Shown here: positions 8,391-47,973 of the stretch, piece after piece | Numbering within the stretch: position 1 is the stretch's first letter | How the letters are laid out: every line of letters starts with the position of its first letter | Assembly (NCBI GenBank): GCA_000004695.1 | Contig: CM000154.2 | Span: forward strand, 512,001-576,000 | DNA: 64,000 bases | Direction: 5' to 3' | Origin: Dictyostelium discoideum | Lineage: Eukaryota | Program-made: the position numbers and the translations under genes | Notes under the pieces: generated by a model | What the model saw: the letters and a program-made list of their open reading frames with translations, nothing else | The model's database searches: none | What the model was told of the DNA's origin: nothing

Positions 8391-8460
8391 GATTTTATTT
8401 TATTTTATTTTATTTTATTTTATTTTATTTTATTTTATTTTATTTTATTTTATTTTATTG
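8391..8460. repeat. (ATTTT)n microsatellite just 3' of ABCC copy 1
   Basis: About 13 tandem 'atttt' units. Confidence 0.9.
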
Positions 8461-11064
8461 TTACTATAATCAGTTTGAGATTTAATTAATTTATTAAATT
8501 TGGAATTTGGAATATTCATTAAGTTTGAAGGAGTATCGAATTCTATTAATTGACCACTATCTATTACTGCTATTTTATTACAATCAATAATTGTTTCAAG
8601 TCTATGAGCAATTGTTAAGGTTGTACAATCTTTAAAGTTTTCTTGAATTGTTTGTTTGATTAATTGAGCTGTATGGTAATCAATTGAACTTGTGGCTTCG
8701 TCCATTAAAATGATTTTAAAATTTTTTAAAATCGTTCTACAAAGACATAATAATTGTTTTTGACCATATGAGAAACCATTATCACCATTCTCTTGTAGTG
8801 CTGTCTCTAATTTTAATGGCATTGAATTGATTGCATCCTTTAATTTAACTTTTTCAATTGATTCCCAAATTTCAAAATCAGTGAATTCATTGAATGGGTC
8901 AATGTTTGAACGAATTGTACCTGTGAAAATGAATGGATCTTGAGGTACAATACCTATTGATGATCTTAGTTTTTGTAATTGAACCTTTGATATATCAATA
9001 CCATCAATTAATATTAAACCTTTTGAACATTCTACCATTCTAAATAATGATGAAGCGATAGTTGTTTTACCGGCGCCAGTTCTACCAACTATTCCAATCT
9101 TTTCGCTGGATTGAACTTTAAATGATAAATCTTTTAAATTTGGTTCTGAATTTGGTCGATATTTAATTTCCACATTTTTAAACTCTATAATACCTTTATT
9201 TGGCCAATTAACTAAATCACCATTTGAAATAGTTTTAAGACCATCACTATCAACTTGATTAGTACCAGTGGATATGAGTTTATTTCCTTCTTTTGGAATT
9301 TCAATATAACTTTGAATTCTTTGGAATGAGTTCATTTTAACTTCTAATTCAACGATTCTACGAACTCCCCAACTTAGATAACCATTTAAACTCAAAGCAG
9401 TTGTGACTGATAACGCAGCGAGTCCATTGTTTGATGTGAATAATGCAGCAGCTAATGAAGTAAAGAATACCATTATACAACCCATAACTTCTAATCTCAT
9501 AGATATCCATCTATGAACTGCGAAACTATAAAAGATACAACCTAAATTAATATTGATATTATCAAACATTTCTTTAATAAATCTAGATTCTTGTTTATAA
9601 GTTCTAATTGTAAGTAAACCATTATAGCACTCTTGAAGTAATGAAAATACTGGCGATAATGTAATAGATTCCCATCTATTTAATTCTCTTGCTGATGGTC
9701 TATATAATCTTTGATAAATATAATAAATTATAAATAACAAAGTTAAAGGTATAATAATAATTGGAATAATGAAAACTATTGAAATTAAACCAATTGTTAA
9801 TTCAGAGAAACATATTGAAACCTCTGATAATAGATCCAACATATGAATATCAATATCACTAGTATCTTTACTGAATCTATTTAAAATTCTACCTGATGGA
9901 TTTGTATCAAAGAATCTACATGATGCATATGTTACTGATTTTAATAGTGCTGAATGTAAATTTTTACCAATTCCAAATGTTATACGACTTAATGAATATG
10001 TACGTATCATTAATAACGAAACAAAAATACCAATAATTAATAAATAGTAACCAATGTAAAATGAATCACTTTTGCCTTCAATTGATCTTTCTGTCCAAAT
10101 TGCTAACCAAAAATCTGAAACTTTATAAACGGCTTGACCAATGAAAAATAATGAAATAGTGATGAAAAGTGTTACACCTGATGTTCCATAACTAAAGTAT
10201 TTTTTATAAACATTAAATTCTACCTCTCCCTCATTTTTATCTTCTTTAACTAATAATTTTGCTTTCTCGATTAAATTTGGATCATTCTTATCACTAATAA
10301 CATTATTAACATCAATAATTTCATTTTCGATTTCAATTTCATTTTTTATTAACTCTTCACTATCAGTTTCATTTTCAACATTTTTTTTAATTTCTTTTGT
10401 TTTTAAAATTGATTTAAAATCAATACCTTGAATACAATGATCGAATAAATGTGATGCGACTTCAGGATCTACAGCTGATAAAGGTTCATCAAAAATAAAA
10501 CAATCTGAATTTGCATAAAGTGCACGTGCTAATGATATACGCTGTTTTTGACCTCCTGAAAGGTTAATACCACGTTCTCCAATCTCTGTTAAATCTAATC
10601 CTGCTAAATTTACTATATCTTTTGTTAATGCTGTTGATTCAATAACTTTTTTATATCTTTCTATATCAAATTCATTTCCAAATAGAATATTCTCTCTTAA
10701 TGATGCACTTAATAAAAATGGTTGTTGACTTGTAAATGAAATATTATTTGGTACACCACTAACACTACCATTTAATTTATAAATTTCACCAATTAAACCA
10801 CAAACTAAACTTGTTTTACCGCTACCAACAACACCACAAATCATAGTTAATTTACCTTTTGGTACTATTAAATTAATATCATTTAATTTATAATCAAAAT
10901 TTTCATTTATTTTAATATTTTCTTCATTTTCCTCTTCCTCTTCTTCTTCATTTTCTTCCTCATCTTCGCTTTGATTAAATTCAAATAAATTATTATTTTC
11001 AGGTTCATTCCATTGAAATGTACAATTTTCAATTATAATATCATTATCATCATTATTGTTATTA

Positions 11065-11099
<35 letters not shown>

Positions 11100-12477
11100 G
11101 AAGTTAATATTTTGATTATTTTCTTTTGATTTTAAAGATTCAGAAGATTTTAAAAAATTTTGAATTCTTTTGACTGATGGCATTAAACCAATAGCTTTAT
11201 AAATATCTTCAGGTAAATAAATTAAGGGTAATTTTAAATTTGCAAAAATGGTCATTGCTGTGAAAGTTACATCTAAACTCATTGTATTACCGGTTAATGA
11301 ATAAGTTGCAAATGTTGATACTAATACTAAGGTTGCATTGGTTTCAATCATCATATGATCGAAAATCCAAAATAAAACTCTAAGAAATAAAAATTTTAAT
11401 TCTTGTTTTCTTTGTTCTTCAATTTTATTTATAAATAAATTCTCCCATGCATACATTTTAAATGGTCTAATATTGGTTATTAATTCACTGGTTAAATTAG
11501 TTCTTGAATCTGAATATTCCAATGATTTCTCTAAATAATTACTAGATTTTGTACACAACATGGTGTTGATTGGTAATGCAATTACCATTACACCAAATCC
11601 AACTAAACCACTTGGACCAACTACATAACATAATAATCCCAATAATATAAGAATTTGAAGTGTATGTGATACAATATCTAAATAATAAGTCCAAAAGAAT
11701 TCTGATATATTTTCAACATCAATTGACATAATATTCATAATTTTTCCAGATCTATATTTCTTTTTTGATACATTTGATAGTTTTAATGTTTTTTCAAATA
11801 TCTTTGCTGTTAATGCGCCTCTAACATCAAAACTATTTTTCATACCAAACCAATAAAATAATTCTTGTGAAATTGATTGTCCTAATATACTGATACATAA
11901 TAAACAACATAATAAAATTCCTTTTAAAATGGATTTTTCATTATCATTATCTGTTGATATATAATTTATTAAACTTTTATAAAAAAAAAAAAAAAAGTTA
12001 GTTCTTTTTTAATTTAAAAATAAATAAATATTAGATTAAATTAAATACATACAATTTTAAACAAATTGGTGATAAAAATATAAAAATTGTAATAAATATA
12101 TTTGAAATTAATGCATATTTATTTTTTGGTAAAAAATTTTTATAAATATGTTTTATTAATGCATATTTTGAACCATTTGAAAAATTGATATCATCCAATA
12201 GTTTTGATGTGGTTTGGACTTTATTTAACTCTGGTAAATCATAAATATCGTTCATTTCTAATGATTCTTTGAAATAACCTTTCATTATTAATTTCGTTAC
12301 CCAATTAAAACTAATTTTTGACCATTTTGATGAATTATCTTCTGGACATGCTTTATAAAAATTATTTGTTGAATTTGATGGTGAAGATGATGGTTCATTT
12401 TCATCTTCATCATCAAGCTTTTCATACAATAATGAAAATTTTTTTTTTATTTTTGTTTCGAAACTATTTATAAACAT
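8445..12477 (-). CDS. abcC: ABC transporter, ABCC/MRP subfamily (TMD1-NBD1-TMD2-NBD2), copy 1; 2 exons 12477-12053 and 11963-8445; carries a 45-codon in-frame deletion in NBD1
   Basis: Exon 1 (track ORF 12031-12477) is the MRP-type N-terminus: 'CPE..SS.WSKISFNW' plus the first TM helix. A GTATGT donor (plus 12047-12052, phase 2) and an acceptor after a T16 tract (AG at 11964-11965) join it to the 1132-aa ORF. That ORF has Walker A GVVGSGKTS and GRTGAGKTT, signature motifs LSGGQKQR and FSYGQKQL, Walker B FIFDEPLSAVD and ILMDEATSSID, and H-loop AHRL in NBD2. Confidence 0.85.
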
Positions 12478-12851
12478 TTTTTTTTTTTTTTTTTTTTTTA
12501 TTTTATTTTTTTTATTTTATTTTTTTTACTTTTTTTTTATTTACATTGCACGAAATTTAAAATAAAATTTTTATACCGAAGAGAATTGCAATAAAAAAAA
12601 AAAAAAAAAAAAAAATTAATTTGAGAAAAAAGTGGTAAAAGCAAAAATAAAAAAAATGGGTTATAATTTGTTTTTACCGAAGCAATTATTAGATAAAACC
12701 CTAAAATTTTTAATGTGCCTTATATGTTGTCGCAATAATTTAAAAACACAATAATTAGCTGTAATAATTTTTATTATTTTCTTTTAAAATTCACAACTAA
12801 ACAGAAAAAAAAAACAACAAAAAATTGTATTATTTATTAAACAAATGCCCA

Positions 12852-12905
<54 letters not shown>

Positions 12906-13230
12906 TACTCTTTATTTTTGAAAAGACAATTTTTTATTTTTCCTATTTATTTTTTATTAATTTTAATTTATTTGTTCATTTTTATTTTTTCTTTTATTTT
13001 TTTTTTTGTTTTTGGTTTCACAAATTTTAGATTTTCGAAAAAAAAAAAAAAAAATCCAATATTCTCCACTCAAAATATAAAATGATTTTACTAAAAGTTT
13101 ACTTCTTCATAAGAATAAGTAAAGGATAAAAGAAAAAAAAAAAAAAATTATTCCAGTCAAGTGGATTTTGATTTAAATAAATTTCTAGAAAAGATTATTT
13201 TTTTTTTATTTATTTATTTGTTTTCATTAT

Positions 13231-16200
13231 TTATTTGTTTATTATTGTTTTTTCATTGTTATTATAATCAGTTTGAGATTTAATTAATTTATTAAATTTG
13301 GAATTTGGAATATTCATTAAGTTTGAAGGAGTATCGAATTCTATTAATTGACCACTATCTATTACTGCTATTTTATTACAATCAATAATTGTTTCAAGTC
13401 TGTGAGCAATTGTTAAGGTTGTACAATCTTTAAAGTTTTCTTGAATTGTTTGTTTGATTAATTGAGCTGTATGGTAATCAATTGAACTTGTGGCTTCGTC
13501 CATTAAAATGATTTTAAAATTTTTTAAAATCGTTCTACAAAGGCATAATAATTGTTTTTGACCATATGAGAAACCATTATCACCATTCTCTTGTAGTGCT
13601 GTCTCTAATTTTAATGGCATTGAATTGATTGCATCCTTTAATTTAACTTTTTCAACTGATTCCCAAATTTCAAAATCAGTGAATTCATTGAATGGGTCAA
13701 TGTTTGAACGAATTGTACCTGTGAAAATGAATGGATCTTGAGGTACAATACCTATTGATGATCTTAGTTTTTGTAATTGAACCTTTGATATATCAATACC
13801 ATCAATTAATATTAAACCTTTTGAACATTCTACCATTCTAAATAATGATGAAGCGATAGTTGTTTTACCGGCACCAGTTCTACCAACTATTCCAATCTTT
13901 TCGCTGGATTGAACTTTAAATGATAAATCTTTTAAATTTGGTTCTGAATTTGGTCGATATTTAATTTCCACATTTTTAAACTCTATAATACCTTTATTTG
14001 GCCAATTAACTAAATCAGCATCCTTAATTGTATGATTATCAACTTCATTTGAGTTTGTTGATACGAGTTTATTTCCTTCTTTTGGAATTTCAATATAACT
14101 TTGAATTCTTTGGAATGAGTTCATTTTAACTTCTAAGTCAACGATTCTACGGATTCCCCAACTTAGATAACCATTTAAACTCAAAGCAGTTGTGACTGAT
14201 AACGCAGCGAGTCCATTGTTTGAAATGAATAATGTTGCAATTAATGAGGTAAAAAATACCATTATCCAACCCATAACTTCCAATCTCATAGAAACCCATC
14301 TATGAACTGCGAAACTATAAAAAAAACAACCTAAATTAATATTGATATTGTCAAACATTTCTTTAATAAATCTAGATTCTTGTTTATAAGTTCTAATTGT
14401 AAGTAAACCATTATAGCACTCTTGAAGTAATGAAAAAATTGGGCTAACTGTAATAGATTCCCATCTATTTAATTCTCTTGCTGATGGTCTATATAATCTT
14501 TGAAGTATATAGTAGGCAATGGATAAAATAATTAATGGAATTACCATAATTGGAATAATGAAAACAATAGAAATTAAACCAATTGTTAATTCAGAGAAAC
14601 ACATTGAAACCTCGGTTAATATATCAAACATATGAATATCAATATCACTAGTATCTTTACTGAATCTATTTAAAATTCTACCTGATGGATTTGTATCAAA
14701 GAATCTACATGATGCATATGTTACTGATTTTAATAGTGCTGAATGTAAATTTTTACCAACGTTGAATGTAATACGACACAATAGTAAAATACGTATCATC
14801 AAGATTACAACAAAAGTACCAAAAATTAATAAATAGTAACCAATGTAAAATGAATCACTTTTGCCTTCAATTGATCTTTCTGTCCAAATTGTTAACCAAA
14901 AATCTGAAACTTTAAAAATGGCTTGACCAACGAAAAATAATGAAATAGTGATGAAAAGTGTTACACCTGATGATCCATAACTAAAGTATTTTTTATAAAC
15001 ATTAAATTCTACCTCTCCCTCATTTTTATCTTCTTTAACTAATAATTTTGCTTTCTCGATTAAATTTGGATCATTCTTATCACTAATAGCATTATTAACA
15101 TCAATAATTTCATTTTCGATTTCAATTTCATTTTTTATTAACTCTTCACTATCAGTTTCATTTTCAACATTTTTTTTAATTTCTTTTGTTTTTAAAATTG
15201 ATTTAAAATCAATACCTTTTTCATTTAATTCTTGATATGTACCTTGAATTAATTGACCATTCGAATTTAAAACTATAATATGATCTGCATATGGAATGAA
15301 TTGAAGTTGATGAGTTACTAAAATTCGTGTTTTATTTCTCATTAATTCTCCTTGAATACAATGATCGAATAAATGTGATGCGACTTCAGGATCTACAGCT
15401 GATAAAGGTTCATCAAAAATAAAACAATCTGAATTTGCATAAAGTGCACGTGCTAATGATATACGCTGTTTTTGACCTCCTGAAAGGTTAATACCACGTT
15501 CTCCAATCTCTGTTAAATCCAATCCTGCTAAATTTACTATATCTTTTGTTAATGCTGTTGATTCAATAACTTTTTTATATCTTTCTATATCAAATTCATT
15601 TCCAAATAGAATATTCTCTCTTAATGATGCACTTAATAAAAATGGTTGTTGACTTGTAAATGAAATATTATTTGGTACACCACTAACACTACCATTTAAT
15701 TTATAAATTTCACCAATTAAACCAAAAATTAAACTTGTTTTACCACTACCAACAACACCACAAATCATAGTTAATTTACCTTTTGGTACTATTAAATTAA
15801 TATCCTTTAATTTATAATTAAATTCTTCATTATCATTTTCTTTTTTATTAATTGATTCATCTTGATTTTCTTCTTCTTCATTGTCACCATAATTTAATTC
15901 AAATATATTATTATTTTCAGGTTCATTCCATTGAAATGTACAATTTTCAACTATAATATCATTATCTTGGCCATGTTGATTATTATTTTCTTTTGTTGTT
16001 GTTATTTTTTGATTTTCATTTTTAAAATTTTTATTATATTTTAAAGATTCAGAAGATTTTAAAAAGTTTTGAACCCTTTTGACTGATGGTATTAAACCAA
16101 TAGCTTTAAAAATATCATAAGGTAGACGAATTAAAGGCACTTCTAATTTTGAAAATATTGTCATTGCTGTGAAAGTTACATCTAAACTCATTGTATTACC

Positions 16201-17373
16201 GTTTAATGAATAAGTTGCAAATGTTGATACTAATACTAAGGTTGCATTGGTTTCAATCATCATATGATCAAGTATTGAGTAAAAAATACGTAGGAATATA
16301 TTCTTTAATTCTTGTTTTCTTTGTCCATCAATTTTATTTATAAAGAAATTCTCCCATGCATACATTTTAAATGGTCTAATATTGGTTATTAATTCACTGG
16401 TTAAATTAGTTCTTGAATCTGAATATTCCAATGATTTCTCTAAATAATTACTAGATTTTGCGCATAACATTGCATTGATTGGTAATGCAATTACCATTAC
16501 ACCAAATCCAACTAAACCACTTGGACCAACTACATAACATAATAATCCCACTAAACTTAATATTTGGATGAAATGGGACACTATATTAATATGATGTGTC
16601 CAAAAGTATTCAGATATGTTTGCAACATCAATTGACATAATATTCATAATTTTTCCAGACTTGTATTCCTTTCTTGATGCATTTGATAATTTTAATGTTT
16701 TTTCAAATATCTTTGCTGCTAATGCACCTCTAACATCAAATCCATTTTTAATACCAAACCAATAAAATAATTCTTGTGAAATTGATTGTCCTAAAACACA
16801 TAAACATAATAAACAACATAATAAAATTCCTTTTAAAATGGATTTTTCATTTTCATCTTGTATTGAAATATAATTTATTAAACTTTATTTTTTTTTTTTG
16901 AAATAAAATAAAATCAATTAATAAAATTGGAAATAATTGGAAAATAAATAAACTATATAATATACTTACAATTTTAAACAAATTGGTGATAAAAATGTAA
17001 AAATTATTATAAATAAATTTGAAACTAAAGCATATTTATTTTTTGGTAAAAATTTTTTATAAATATGTTTTATTAATGTATAATTAGAATTATTTGATAA
17101 ATCTATATCTTCCAATAGTTTTGATGTGGTTTGGACTTTATTTAACTCTGGTAAATCATAAATATCGTTCATTTCTAATGACTCTTTTAAATAACCTTTC
17201 ATTATTAATTTCGTTACCCAATTAAAACTAATTTTTGACCATTTTGATGAATTATCTTCTGGACATGTTTTATAAAAATTATTTGTTGAATTTGATGATG
17301 GTTCATTTTCATCTTCATTATCTTTTAGTTTTTCATAGGACGAAAAAAACTTTTTTAAAATTTTAGTGAACAT
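13231..17373 (-). CDS. abcC: ABC transporter, ABCC/MRP subfamily, copy 2 (intact NBD1 H-loop 'ILVTHQ'); 2 exons 17373-16969 and 16882-13231
   Basis: Same architecture and ~90% identity to copy 1. Exon 1 'MFTKILKKFFSSYEKL...SPICLKL' has a GTAAGT donor at plus 16963-16968. The acceptor ...ATAAAG|TTTAATAAATTA lies after a T-tract. The ATG at 17373 is more likely than the upstream K-rich alternative start reported by the track. Confidence 0.85.
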
Positions 17374-17687
17374 TTTTTTTTGTTTTTTTTTTTTTTTTTT
17401 TTGTTTTGTTTTGTTTCTCACACAAACATGATCTAATTAAATAACTCGGCAACTCCAATATTTTGTTTAAAAGCAACTCCATTATTTAGTGATTTGTTCT
17501 TTATTTCTTAAAAAATTCTCTACTTTCATTTTTGAGAAAATATATTTAAAAGGTTCACCCTTATAGTATGTTCTTTTTTTTTAAAGTGGAGAAAAGAGAA
17601 TGAAAGCTGTGTTTTTTTTTAGATTTTTTGGATTTTTCGTTTTAATTTTTTTTTTTTTAGTTCGTTTTTTTAGGGTTATCTTGATTT

Positions 17688-38084: not shown

Positions 38085-40643
<2,559 letters not shown>

Positions 40644-42898: not shown

Positions 42899-47973
<5,075 letters not shown>

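Follow-up and report, generated by a model that had tools for sequence, protein, structure and literature searches.

The 64,000-nucleotide stretch of the Dictyostelium discoideum genome analyzed here (assembly GCA_000004695.1, contig CM000154.2, positions 512,001 to 576,000 of the forward strand; this whole stretch is called "the window" and all positions given below refer to it) carries two genes for ABC transporters of the ABCC family, abcC6 and abcC14, which are arranged in tandem, head-to-tail, on the minus strand (8445-17373, with 753 bp between the genes). As one of the two, abcC14, lacks 135 bp (45 codons) that abcC6 has in its first nucleotide-binding domain (NBD1), the locus raises the question whether this gap is a real deletion and, if so, which of the two forms is ancestral, how the loss arose within a gene pair that is in part almost identical, and whether the shortened gene still encodes a working exporter.

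abcC14 lacks an in-frame segment of NBD1 that abcC6 retains

The first-pass annotation of the window had described a tandem ABCC pair, one copy of which has undergone a clean in-frame loss of 45 codons, and BLASTN, direct read-out of the sequence and the translations all bear this out. The alignment of abcC14 (8445..12477, minus strand) with abcC6 (13231..17373, minus strand) falls into two collinear blocks, with the break at 10426-10429 in abcC14 as compared to 15218 and 15350 in abcC6; a multi-strain DNA alignment supports the same junction. In abcC14, the junction (10426..10429, minus strand) holds a single CCTT on the plus strand (AAGG on the coding strand). In abcC6, this 4-bp microhomology occurs at both ends of the extra segment (15219..15353 or, equivalently, 15215-15349, minus strand), 135 bp apart, as had been proposed and as the sequence read-out confirmed. 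On the coding strand, abcC6 reads ATTCAAGG followed directly by AGAATTAATG at the beginning of the segment and GAAAAAGG followed by TATTGAT at its end, and the abcC14 junction reads ATTCAAGGTATTGAT; the deleted form joins ATTCAAGG to TATTGATTT, as compared to ATTCAAGG joined to AGAATTAATG in the intact form. The 135 bp were also considered as an intron or alternative exon, a candidate that was rejected as the segment is in frame and codes for the canonical H-loop region, and as all homologs show its conservation at the protein level.

By exact-sequence look-up, the spliced product of the first copy is AX4 ABC transporter C family member 14 (abcC14; Q54K24 / XP_637140.1, 1317 aa) and that of the second copy is AX4 ABC transporter C family member 6 (abcC6; Q8T6H3 / XP_637141.1, 1351 aa). 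The window is the abcC6-abcC14 locus of the AX4 reference, and both are catalogued D. discoideum genes. Each copy has two ABC_membrane domains (PF00664, E = 2e-46) and two ABC_tran domains (PF00005, E = 4e-47), i.e., the full-transporter topology of short-type ABCC proteins. The best named matches were proteins annotated as "ABC transporter C family" in Dictyostelium and, in plants, fungi and animals, proteins of the MRP type, and the top PDB matches (MRP4, plant ABCC2, MRP2, MRP5 and MRP1) likewise relate both copies to the ABCC family; for NBD1, the nearest solved structure was that of MRP4/ABCC4 (E = 7e-71). Judged by these similarities, AbcC6 and AbcC14 are predicted to be short, MRP4-like ABCC exporters. 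Public databases have listed the genes, their tandem layout and the sequence of the 1317-aa protein for years, and the system as such is already known; ABCC.14 and its family were reportedly first described by Anjard and Loomis in 2002. Added here are the polarity of the deletion, its restriction to one lineage, its location in an active conversion tract and a precise list of the structural elements that are lost.

The deletion junction in a second genome

An assembly collapse had been raised in the first-pass annotation as another cause of the gap. More broadly, the missing 135 bp could be an artefact of sequencing, cloning or assembly (i.e., a clone deletion in E. coli or the collapse of near-identical paralogs): the two flanks of the junction are 100% identical to abcC6 (over 165 bp and 129 bp, respectively), and AT-rich Dictyostelium inserts are unstable in E. 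coli. Against such an artefact, the corresponding locus of assembly GCA_054883475.1 (L001) showed 99.7% identity to positions 1-22525 of the window and exactly the same deletion junction. Over these 22.5 kb the two sequences differed at 17 places, i.e., at 13 A/T runs of different length (12 of them pure homopolymer runs, the other a GTTTT indel) and at four single-nucleotide variants (SNVs); by this comparison L001 is not a copied sequence but comes from another genome of this clonal lineage that was sequenced independently. Because this independently sequenced genome has the identical junction, we regard the deletion as real. The junction is also present in GenBank entry AAL89812.1 (1317 aa), which may stem from the same project as the reference. 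In addition, a collapse would not leave a clean, in-frame and microhomology-bounded loss with both genes otherwise resolved, and published abcC6 primers sit within the 135 bp: two abcC6 forward primers reported by Miranda et al. 2013 (PMC3743828), one for the knockout and one diagnostic, map to 15303-15324 and 15231-15255, respectively, both in the segment that only abcC6 has. An artefact of any of these kinds is therefore considered very improbable.

Apart from the deletion, abcC14 differs from abcC6 in low-complexity loops, as the first-pass annotation had noted for the region upstream of NBD1; such differences were found both upstream of this domain and inside it. Two loops of abcC14, one poly-Asn (11046-11111) and one acidic (10917-10970; both minus strand), are paralog-specific and length-polymorphic among alleles. 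Two of the four SNVs between the window and L001 (10915 and 10932) fall in the acidic loop, one of them giving Ile in the window (ENIKINE) and Asn in L001 (ENNKINE), with Asn in all other alleles; from the alleles compared, the Ile could be a mutation specific to AX4 or an error in the reference. Between the window and L001, homopolymer runs varied in length by as many as 22 bases, e.g., the A-run at 12854 in the abcC14-abcC6 intergenic region, and this variation could represent sequencing-technology noise or real instability between stocks.

The short form is derived and limited to one lineage

A comparison with orthologs, which had been suggested as a way to polarize the event, showed that the difference is a derived deletion in abcC14 and not an insertion in abcC6. 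The 90%-identity cluster with AX4 AbcC14 had six members, i.e., three short proteins (1317 aa, junction present: AX4 RefSeq, GenBank AAL89812.1 "ABCC.14" and ACTFIT_000228 from GCA_054883475.1) and three long proteins with the additional 45 residues (two from other assemblies of D. discoideum, ACTFIR_001247 and ACTFIW_006007, and one from D. cf. discoideum, ACTFIY_002464). The 45 residues are also present in the positional abcC14 orthologs of D. citrinum and D. firmibasis and in every abcC6 ortholog examined, and wild-type abcC14 alleles have a complete NBD1 motif set including the H-loop. At the DNA level, the 135 bp are absent, among the loci compared, only from the window and L001. In a 74-sequence alignment covering amoebae, plants, fungi and animals, the segment was found in all 73 diverse ABCC homologs, with Thr, His, Asp and Gly residues conserved in 73, 63, 72 and 71 of the 74 sequences, respectively, and the deleted stretch aligned residue for residue with the H-loop region of the MRP4 and MRP1 structures. 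Because the orthologs keep the segment and all 73 homologs have it, the short form is derived, and among the available assemblies it is limited to one, AX4-type laboratory, lineage. The opposite polarity, by which the short form would be ancestral and abcC6 would have gained 135 bp, was rejected: no point was found in favor of an insertion, and such a gain has next to no probability given the intact abcC14 orthologs of five other assemblies, the occurrence of the segment throughout the wider family and its residue-for-residue match to MRP4 and MRP1. The short abcC14 is a strain-specific allele of an ordinary type, and no new kind of system is involved.

Loci of the D. discoideum group share the order ADP-dependent kinase gene, abcC6, abcC14 and an open reading frame (ORF) of approx. 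850 aa; in D. firmibasis the upstream side is the same, and the approx. 850-aa ORF occurs in the D. discoideum-group loci only. As a separate observation, the D. citrinum locus (GCA_054859325.1, 1-18295) has a single abcC gene, with none at the abcC6 position; it has a 594-aa gene upstream in place of the ADP-dependent kinase gene, an ORF of approx. 900 aa downstream and small extra genes nearby. The single abcC gene of D. citrinum could reflect the loss of one copy, an assembly collapse or a relocation.

Elements of NBD1 that are lost and kept

The first-pass annotation had placed both the switch His (VTHQ) and the D-loop of NBD1 in the lost segment. The motif listing and the abcC6 model agree with the former; the D-loop, on the other hand, is kept, with SAVD (10467-10478) directly after Walker B. 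Also kept in the NBD1 of abcC14 are Walker A (GSGKT; 10809-10835), the Q-loop (SQQP; 10719-10730), the LSGGQ signature (10548-10562) and Walker B with the catalytic Glu (FIFDE; 10485-10502), all on the minus strand. Overall, abcC6 has a complete NBD1 motif set and AX4 abcC14 does not, as the H-loop VTHQ and the strands that follow it are gone. The second nucleotide-binding domain (NBD2) has a complete motif set in both copies (GAGKT, FSYGQ, ILMDE, SSID and TIAHR); in abcC14, Walker A (GAGKT) is located at 9060-9086, the FSYGQ signature, which is non-canonical and typical of ABCC proteins, at 8760-8774, Walker B (ILMDE) at 8697-8714 and the H-loop (TIAHR) at 8601-8615 (minus strand).

Modelling of NBD1 had likewise been proposed; AlphaFold2 placed three strands and two helices within the deleted stretch. 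In the abcC6 NBD1 model (mean predicted local distance difference test score, pLDDT, of 82.9, with values >90 across the core), the elements that abcC14 lacks are the strand 213-217 (RILVT, followed by the switch His), the helix 221-226, the strands 229-233 (HIIVL) and 239-242 (LIQG) and the helix 244-249. In the model of the AX4 AbcC14 NBD1, the strand before Walker A had no strand assignment and confidence dropped to approx. 40 immediately past the junction; among known structures, human MRP1 NBD1 was the closest match to this model (2cbz; root-mean-square deviation 1.5 Å, but a target-normalised TM-score of only 0.69). AlphaFold2 does not gauge stability, so that these models show which parts are missing and not whether the domain folds.

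Domain scans are blind to the deletion and report two intact NBDs because the Pfam ABC_tran model stops before the H-loop. ABC_tran ends just past Walker B; in NBD2, for example, its last position is residue 1052 of the ORF product, with the H-loop at residues 1077-1081.

Evidence for gene conversion between abcC6 and abcC14

The two copies had been described as nearly identical in DNA over long stretches. This holds, and the long near-identical stretches are the NBD tracts: identity between the copies is a mosaic, with 99-100% over NBD1 (approx. 10800-10185) and NBD2 (approx. 9160-8445) and 65-93% over most of the transmembrane domain (TMD) and loop regions, where short patches reach 99-100%. 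The NBD1 tract of abcC14 (10185..10800) matches 14974..15724 of abcC6, and the NBD2 tract of abcC14 (8445..9160) is 99-100% identical to 13242-13957 of abcC6 (all minus strand). Paralog differences at 10801 and 10805 set Walker A, just 5' of the NBD1 tract, apart from it.

The same identity mosaic was observed in each of five lineages, with the paralogs of a given lineage showing 98-100% identity in the NBD tracts in all five. For orthologs, identity in these tracts was 88-91% when D. discoideum was compared with D. firmibasis and, in most windows, 97-98% when the D. discoideum assemblies were compared with each other. Identity was greater between paralogs than between orthologs in most 150-column windows of the D. 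discoideum group and, by approx. 10 percentage points, in all windows for D. firmibasis. Among the 103 variable sites of the NBD1 tract, 67 were paralog-identical in every lineage, as were 80 of the 105 variable sites of the NBD2 tract, and neither tract had a single fixed paralog difference. The TMD regions, on the other hand, had 386 and 196 variable sites, of which approx. 20% were paralog-identical, and 25 and 13 fixed paralog differences, respectively. Silent lineage-specific variants are common to both paralogs even in the 135-bp segment, e.g., CAC (His) in both ACTFIR genes and GAT TCA AAT GGT AAA in both ACTFIY genes. These patterns of concerted evolution represent recurrent interparalog gene conversion that is confined to the two NBDs, and the near-identical stretches reflect it.

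Age and origin of the deletion

Across 616 bp around the junction, i.e., the NBD1 tract, abcC14 differs from abcC6 by only two substitutions (10596 and 10300) beside the deletion. Of the codon changes in abcC14 that are derived in AX4, 25 in total, 16 also occur in AX4 abcC6, including codons 567 and 624 upstream of the deletion and codons 705, 729, 737, 738, 755 and 756 downstream of it. Because such changes are shared on both sides of the junction, the NBD1 tract was homogenised by conversion after the AX4 lineage split from the other D. discoideum lineages. As conversion across the site would either erase the deletion or copy it into abcC6, the deletion is probably younger than, or a by-product of, the last conversion event, a timing that we infer from the shared changes. 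The 4-bp microhomology is in keeping with slippage during replication or with microhomology-mediated repair; taken alone it is weak evidence, given how AT-rich the sequence is (G+C of 14-29% in the window).

We propose that recurrent conversion keeps both NBD regions of the pair near-identical in every lineage and that, in the AX4-type lineage, 135 bp between two 4-bp AAGG repeats were deleted inside the NBD1 conversion tract of abcC14, with replication slippage or microhomology-mediated repair as the presumed cause. The deletion would have occurred after, or possibly during, the last conversion event, and a later conversion could repair abcC14 from abcC6 or spread the deletion into abcC6. The locus provides a small example of a structural lesion in an active conversion tract, which can be repaired from, or spread to, the paralog.

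Consequences for AbcC14 function

The abcC14 allele of the AX4 reference and the laboratory lineage appears to be structurally damaged, and the other D. discoideum assemblies examined do not have this allele. With regard to function, this is rather likely to be a young hypomorphic or null allele that is buffered by abcC6 and other abcC paralogs. In the first-pass annotation, a transporter with an altered, possibly non-hydrolytic NBD1 and a gene on the way to pseudogenisation had both been considered; we lean towards loss or strong reduction of function. The deletion keeps the frame and removes from the NBD1 core the beta-strand with the switch His, the next two beta-strands and two short helices, which would most likely leave NBD1 misfolding-prone or catalytically dead. 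The loss would be tolerated through functional overlap with abcC6 and a dozen other abcC genes, and the allele would be too young for further decay to show. The lost segment is universally conserved and supplies three strands of the domain core, which counts for damage, and the NBD1 of ABCC proteins is sensitive to folding defects, as in CFTR deltaF508.

A number of observations weigh against this reading. The abcC14 ORF is intact, with no premature stop and no frameshift. The ratio of nonsynonymous to synonymous substitution rates (dN/dS; Nei-Gojobori) of AX4 abcC14 as compared to other D. discoideum alleles was 0.14, which is in the range of the other comparisons, and the AX4 abcC14 branch carried 17 synonymous and 8 nonsynonymous changes, similar to other branches. 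Neither dN/dS nor these branch-polarised counts gave a signal of relaxed selection on AX4 abcC14, although power is low because the allele is young. Overall, the marks of a pseudogene (i.e., a disabled frame, lost expression or relaxed constraint) do not appear to be present in AX4 abcC14. The AlphaFold2 model of its NBD1 shows a native-like, confident fold up to the junction. Moreover, in ABCC proteins the NBD1 H-loop often belongs to an ATP site without catalytic activity, as is known from MRP1 and CFTR.

A knockout phenotype reported for AX4 abcC14 also has to be weighed on this side. In the passages on abcC14 in Miranda et al. 2013 (PMC3743828), the abcC14 transcript is among those that peak at 0 h in AX4, and for the AX4 abcC14 knockout, reduced sporulation (38 and 50%) is described together with fruiting bodies that are small and asynchronous and with prestalk sorting; these passages make no mention of the deletion. 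Such a phenotype would imply residual function of the deleted allele. This evidence is weak, however, because both arm primers match abcC6 and because many mutants in the same study are described with comparable mild defects. According to Table S1 of that study, both abcC14 knockout-arm primers match abcC14 and abcC6 perfectly (at 10210-10228 and 14999-15017 and at 8898-8915 and 13696-13713, respectively), and the abcC14 arm reverse primer is the same as the abcC6 one, so that the targeting fragment is not paralog-specific.

It is possible, though we consider it the less likely outcome, that AX4 AbcC14 is still a working exporter in which NBD1 is purely ATP-binding or structural (degenerate) and hydrolysis takes place at the consensus site formed by Walker A, Walker B and the H-loop of NBD2 together with the NBD1 signature. 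The gene is transcribed from an intact frame, and Walker A, Q-loop, LSGGQ, Walker B with its Glu and D-loop of NBD1, as well as Walker A/B and TIAHR of NBD2, are all in place; the non-canonical FSYGQ signature of NBD2 would mean that the site using the NBD1 H-loop was probably already the weaker one. The confident remainder of the NBD1 model and the reported knockout phenotype would also be in keeping with a working protein. However, the loss is not restricted to the His but extends to three core beta-strands, including the neighbor of the Walker A strand; none of the 73 homologs does without the segment, and every other lineage keeps it (dN/dS of approx. 0.15-0.19). In addition, the knockout arms are not paralog-specific, and selection has not had time to test so young an allele. 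That AX4 AbcC14 could be a functional full-length exporter with a natural "minimal NBD1", restricted to ATP binding and dimerisation, is doubtful; if true, it would show that a degenerate ABCC site tolerates the removal of a fifth of the domain.

Whether hypomorphic or null, the damaged abcC14 allele bears on work with this gene pair. Because it is lineage-limited, AX4 phenotype and expression data for abcC14 and abcC6 may not represent the species. The NBD regions of the two genes are also too alike for specific primers, knockout arms and short-read mapping. The finding is useful to those who work on Dictyostelium ABC transporters; it represents an ordinary strain polymorphism in a catalogued gene and opens no long-standing question.

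Comparison with other ABCC proteins

Proteins of the MRP4/ABCC4 type (PDB 8sx7 and 8bjf) share with AbcC6 and AbcC14 the order TMD1-NBD1-TMD2-NBD2, a length of approx. 1320-1350 aa and the lack of a TMD0. The deleted stretch aligns to MRP4 without large gaps, whereas AX4 AbcC14 lacks that whole stretch. The Dictyostelium NBD1 also differs from MRP4 in the residue after Walker B, which is the canonical catalytic Glu in Dictyostelium (FDEPLSAVD) and Asp in MRP4 (LDDPLSAVD).

In MRP1, CFTR and SUR, which have a degenerate NBD1 site, the NBD1 H-loop similarly belongs to a composite site that is often inactive, and the NBD2 signature is non-canonical, as is FSYGQ here. In these proteins, however, degeneracy stems from point substitutions (e.g., Ser for the H-loop His in CFTR and Asp for the catalytic Glu in MRP1) and the fold is complete, whereas AbcC14 is short of 45 residues and three core strands. 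CFTR deltaF508 and other NBD1 folding mutants also resemble the AX4 allele, as deltaF508 is an in-frame deletion in an ABCC NBD1, and this likeness suggests a defect in folding or trafficking rather than a simple catalytic one; the structure 1xmj was among the fold matches of the NBD1 model. On the other hand, deltaF508 removes a single surface-exposed residue, whereas AbcC14 loses 45 residues of the core.

Human ABCC6 and its pseudogenes ABCC6P1 and ABCC6P2 are also linked duplicates that are homogenised by conversion, such that a lesion can be transferred or repaired. They differ from the Dictyostelium pair in that both Dictyostelium copies are full-length expressed genes, conversion is confined to the two NBDs, and the lesion is an in-frame deletion found in one lineage only.

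Gene structure and other features of the window

In the spliced gene models, abcC14 consists of exon 1 (12477..12053) and exon 2 (11973..8445), separated by a 79-bp GT..AG intron (12052..11974), and abcC6 consists of exon 1 (17373..16970) and exon 2 (16882..13231), separated by an 87-bp GT..AG intron (16969..16883), all on the minus strand. The first-pass annotation had let the region of the pair run to 17421; this end belongs to an ORF extension that starts with GTG, and the actual abcC6 ATG is at 17373.

Elsewhere in the window, the pairs of ORFs of equal length at 34-42 kb were found to be unrelated, so that they do not represent a second duplication. Positions 39911-40500, within a 532-aa ORF on the plus strand (39045-40643), contain a long run of tandem repeats with a 9-bp period (approx. 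45 overlapping copies of a 217-nt register), which is coding low-complexity sequence typical of Dictyostelium. An inverted match (261 nt, 74%) is located at 43001-43261.

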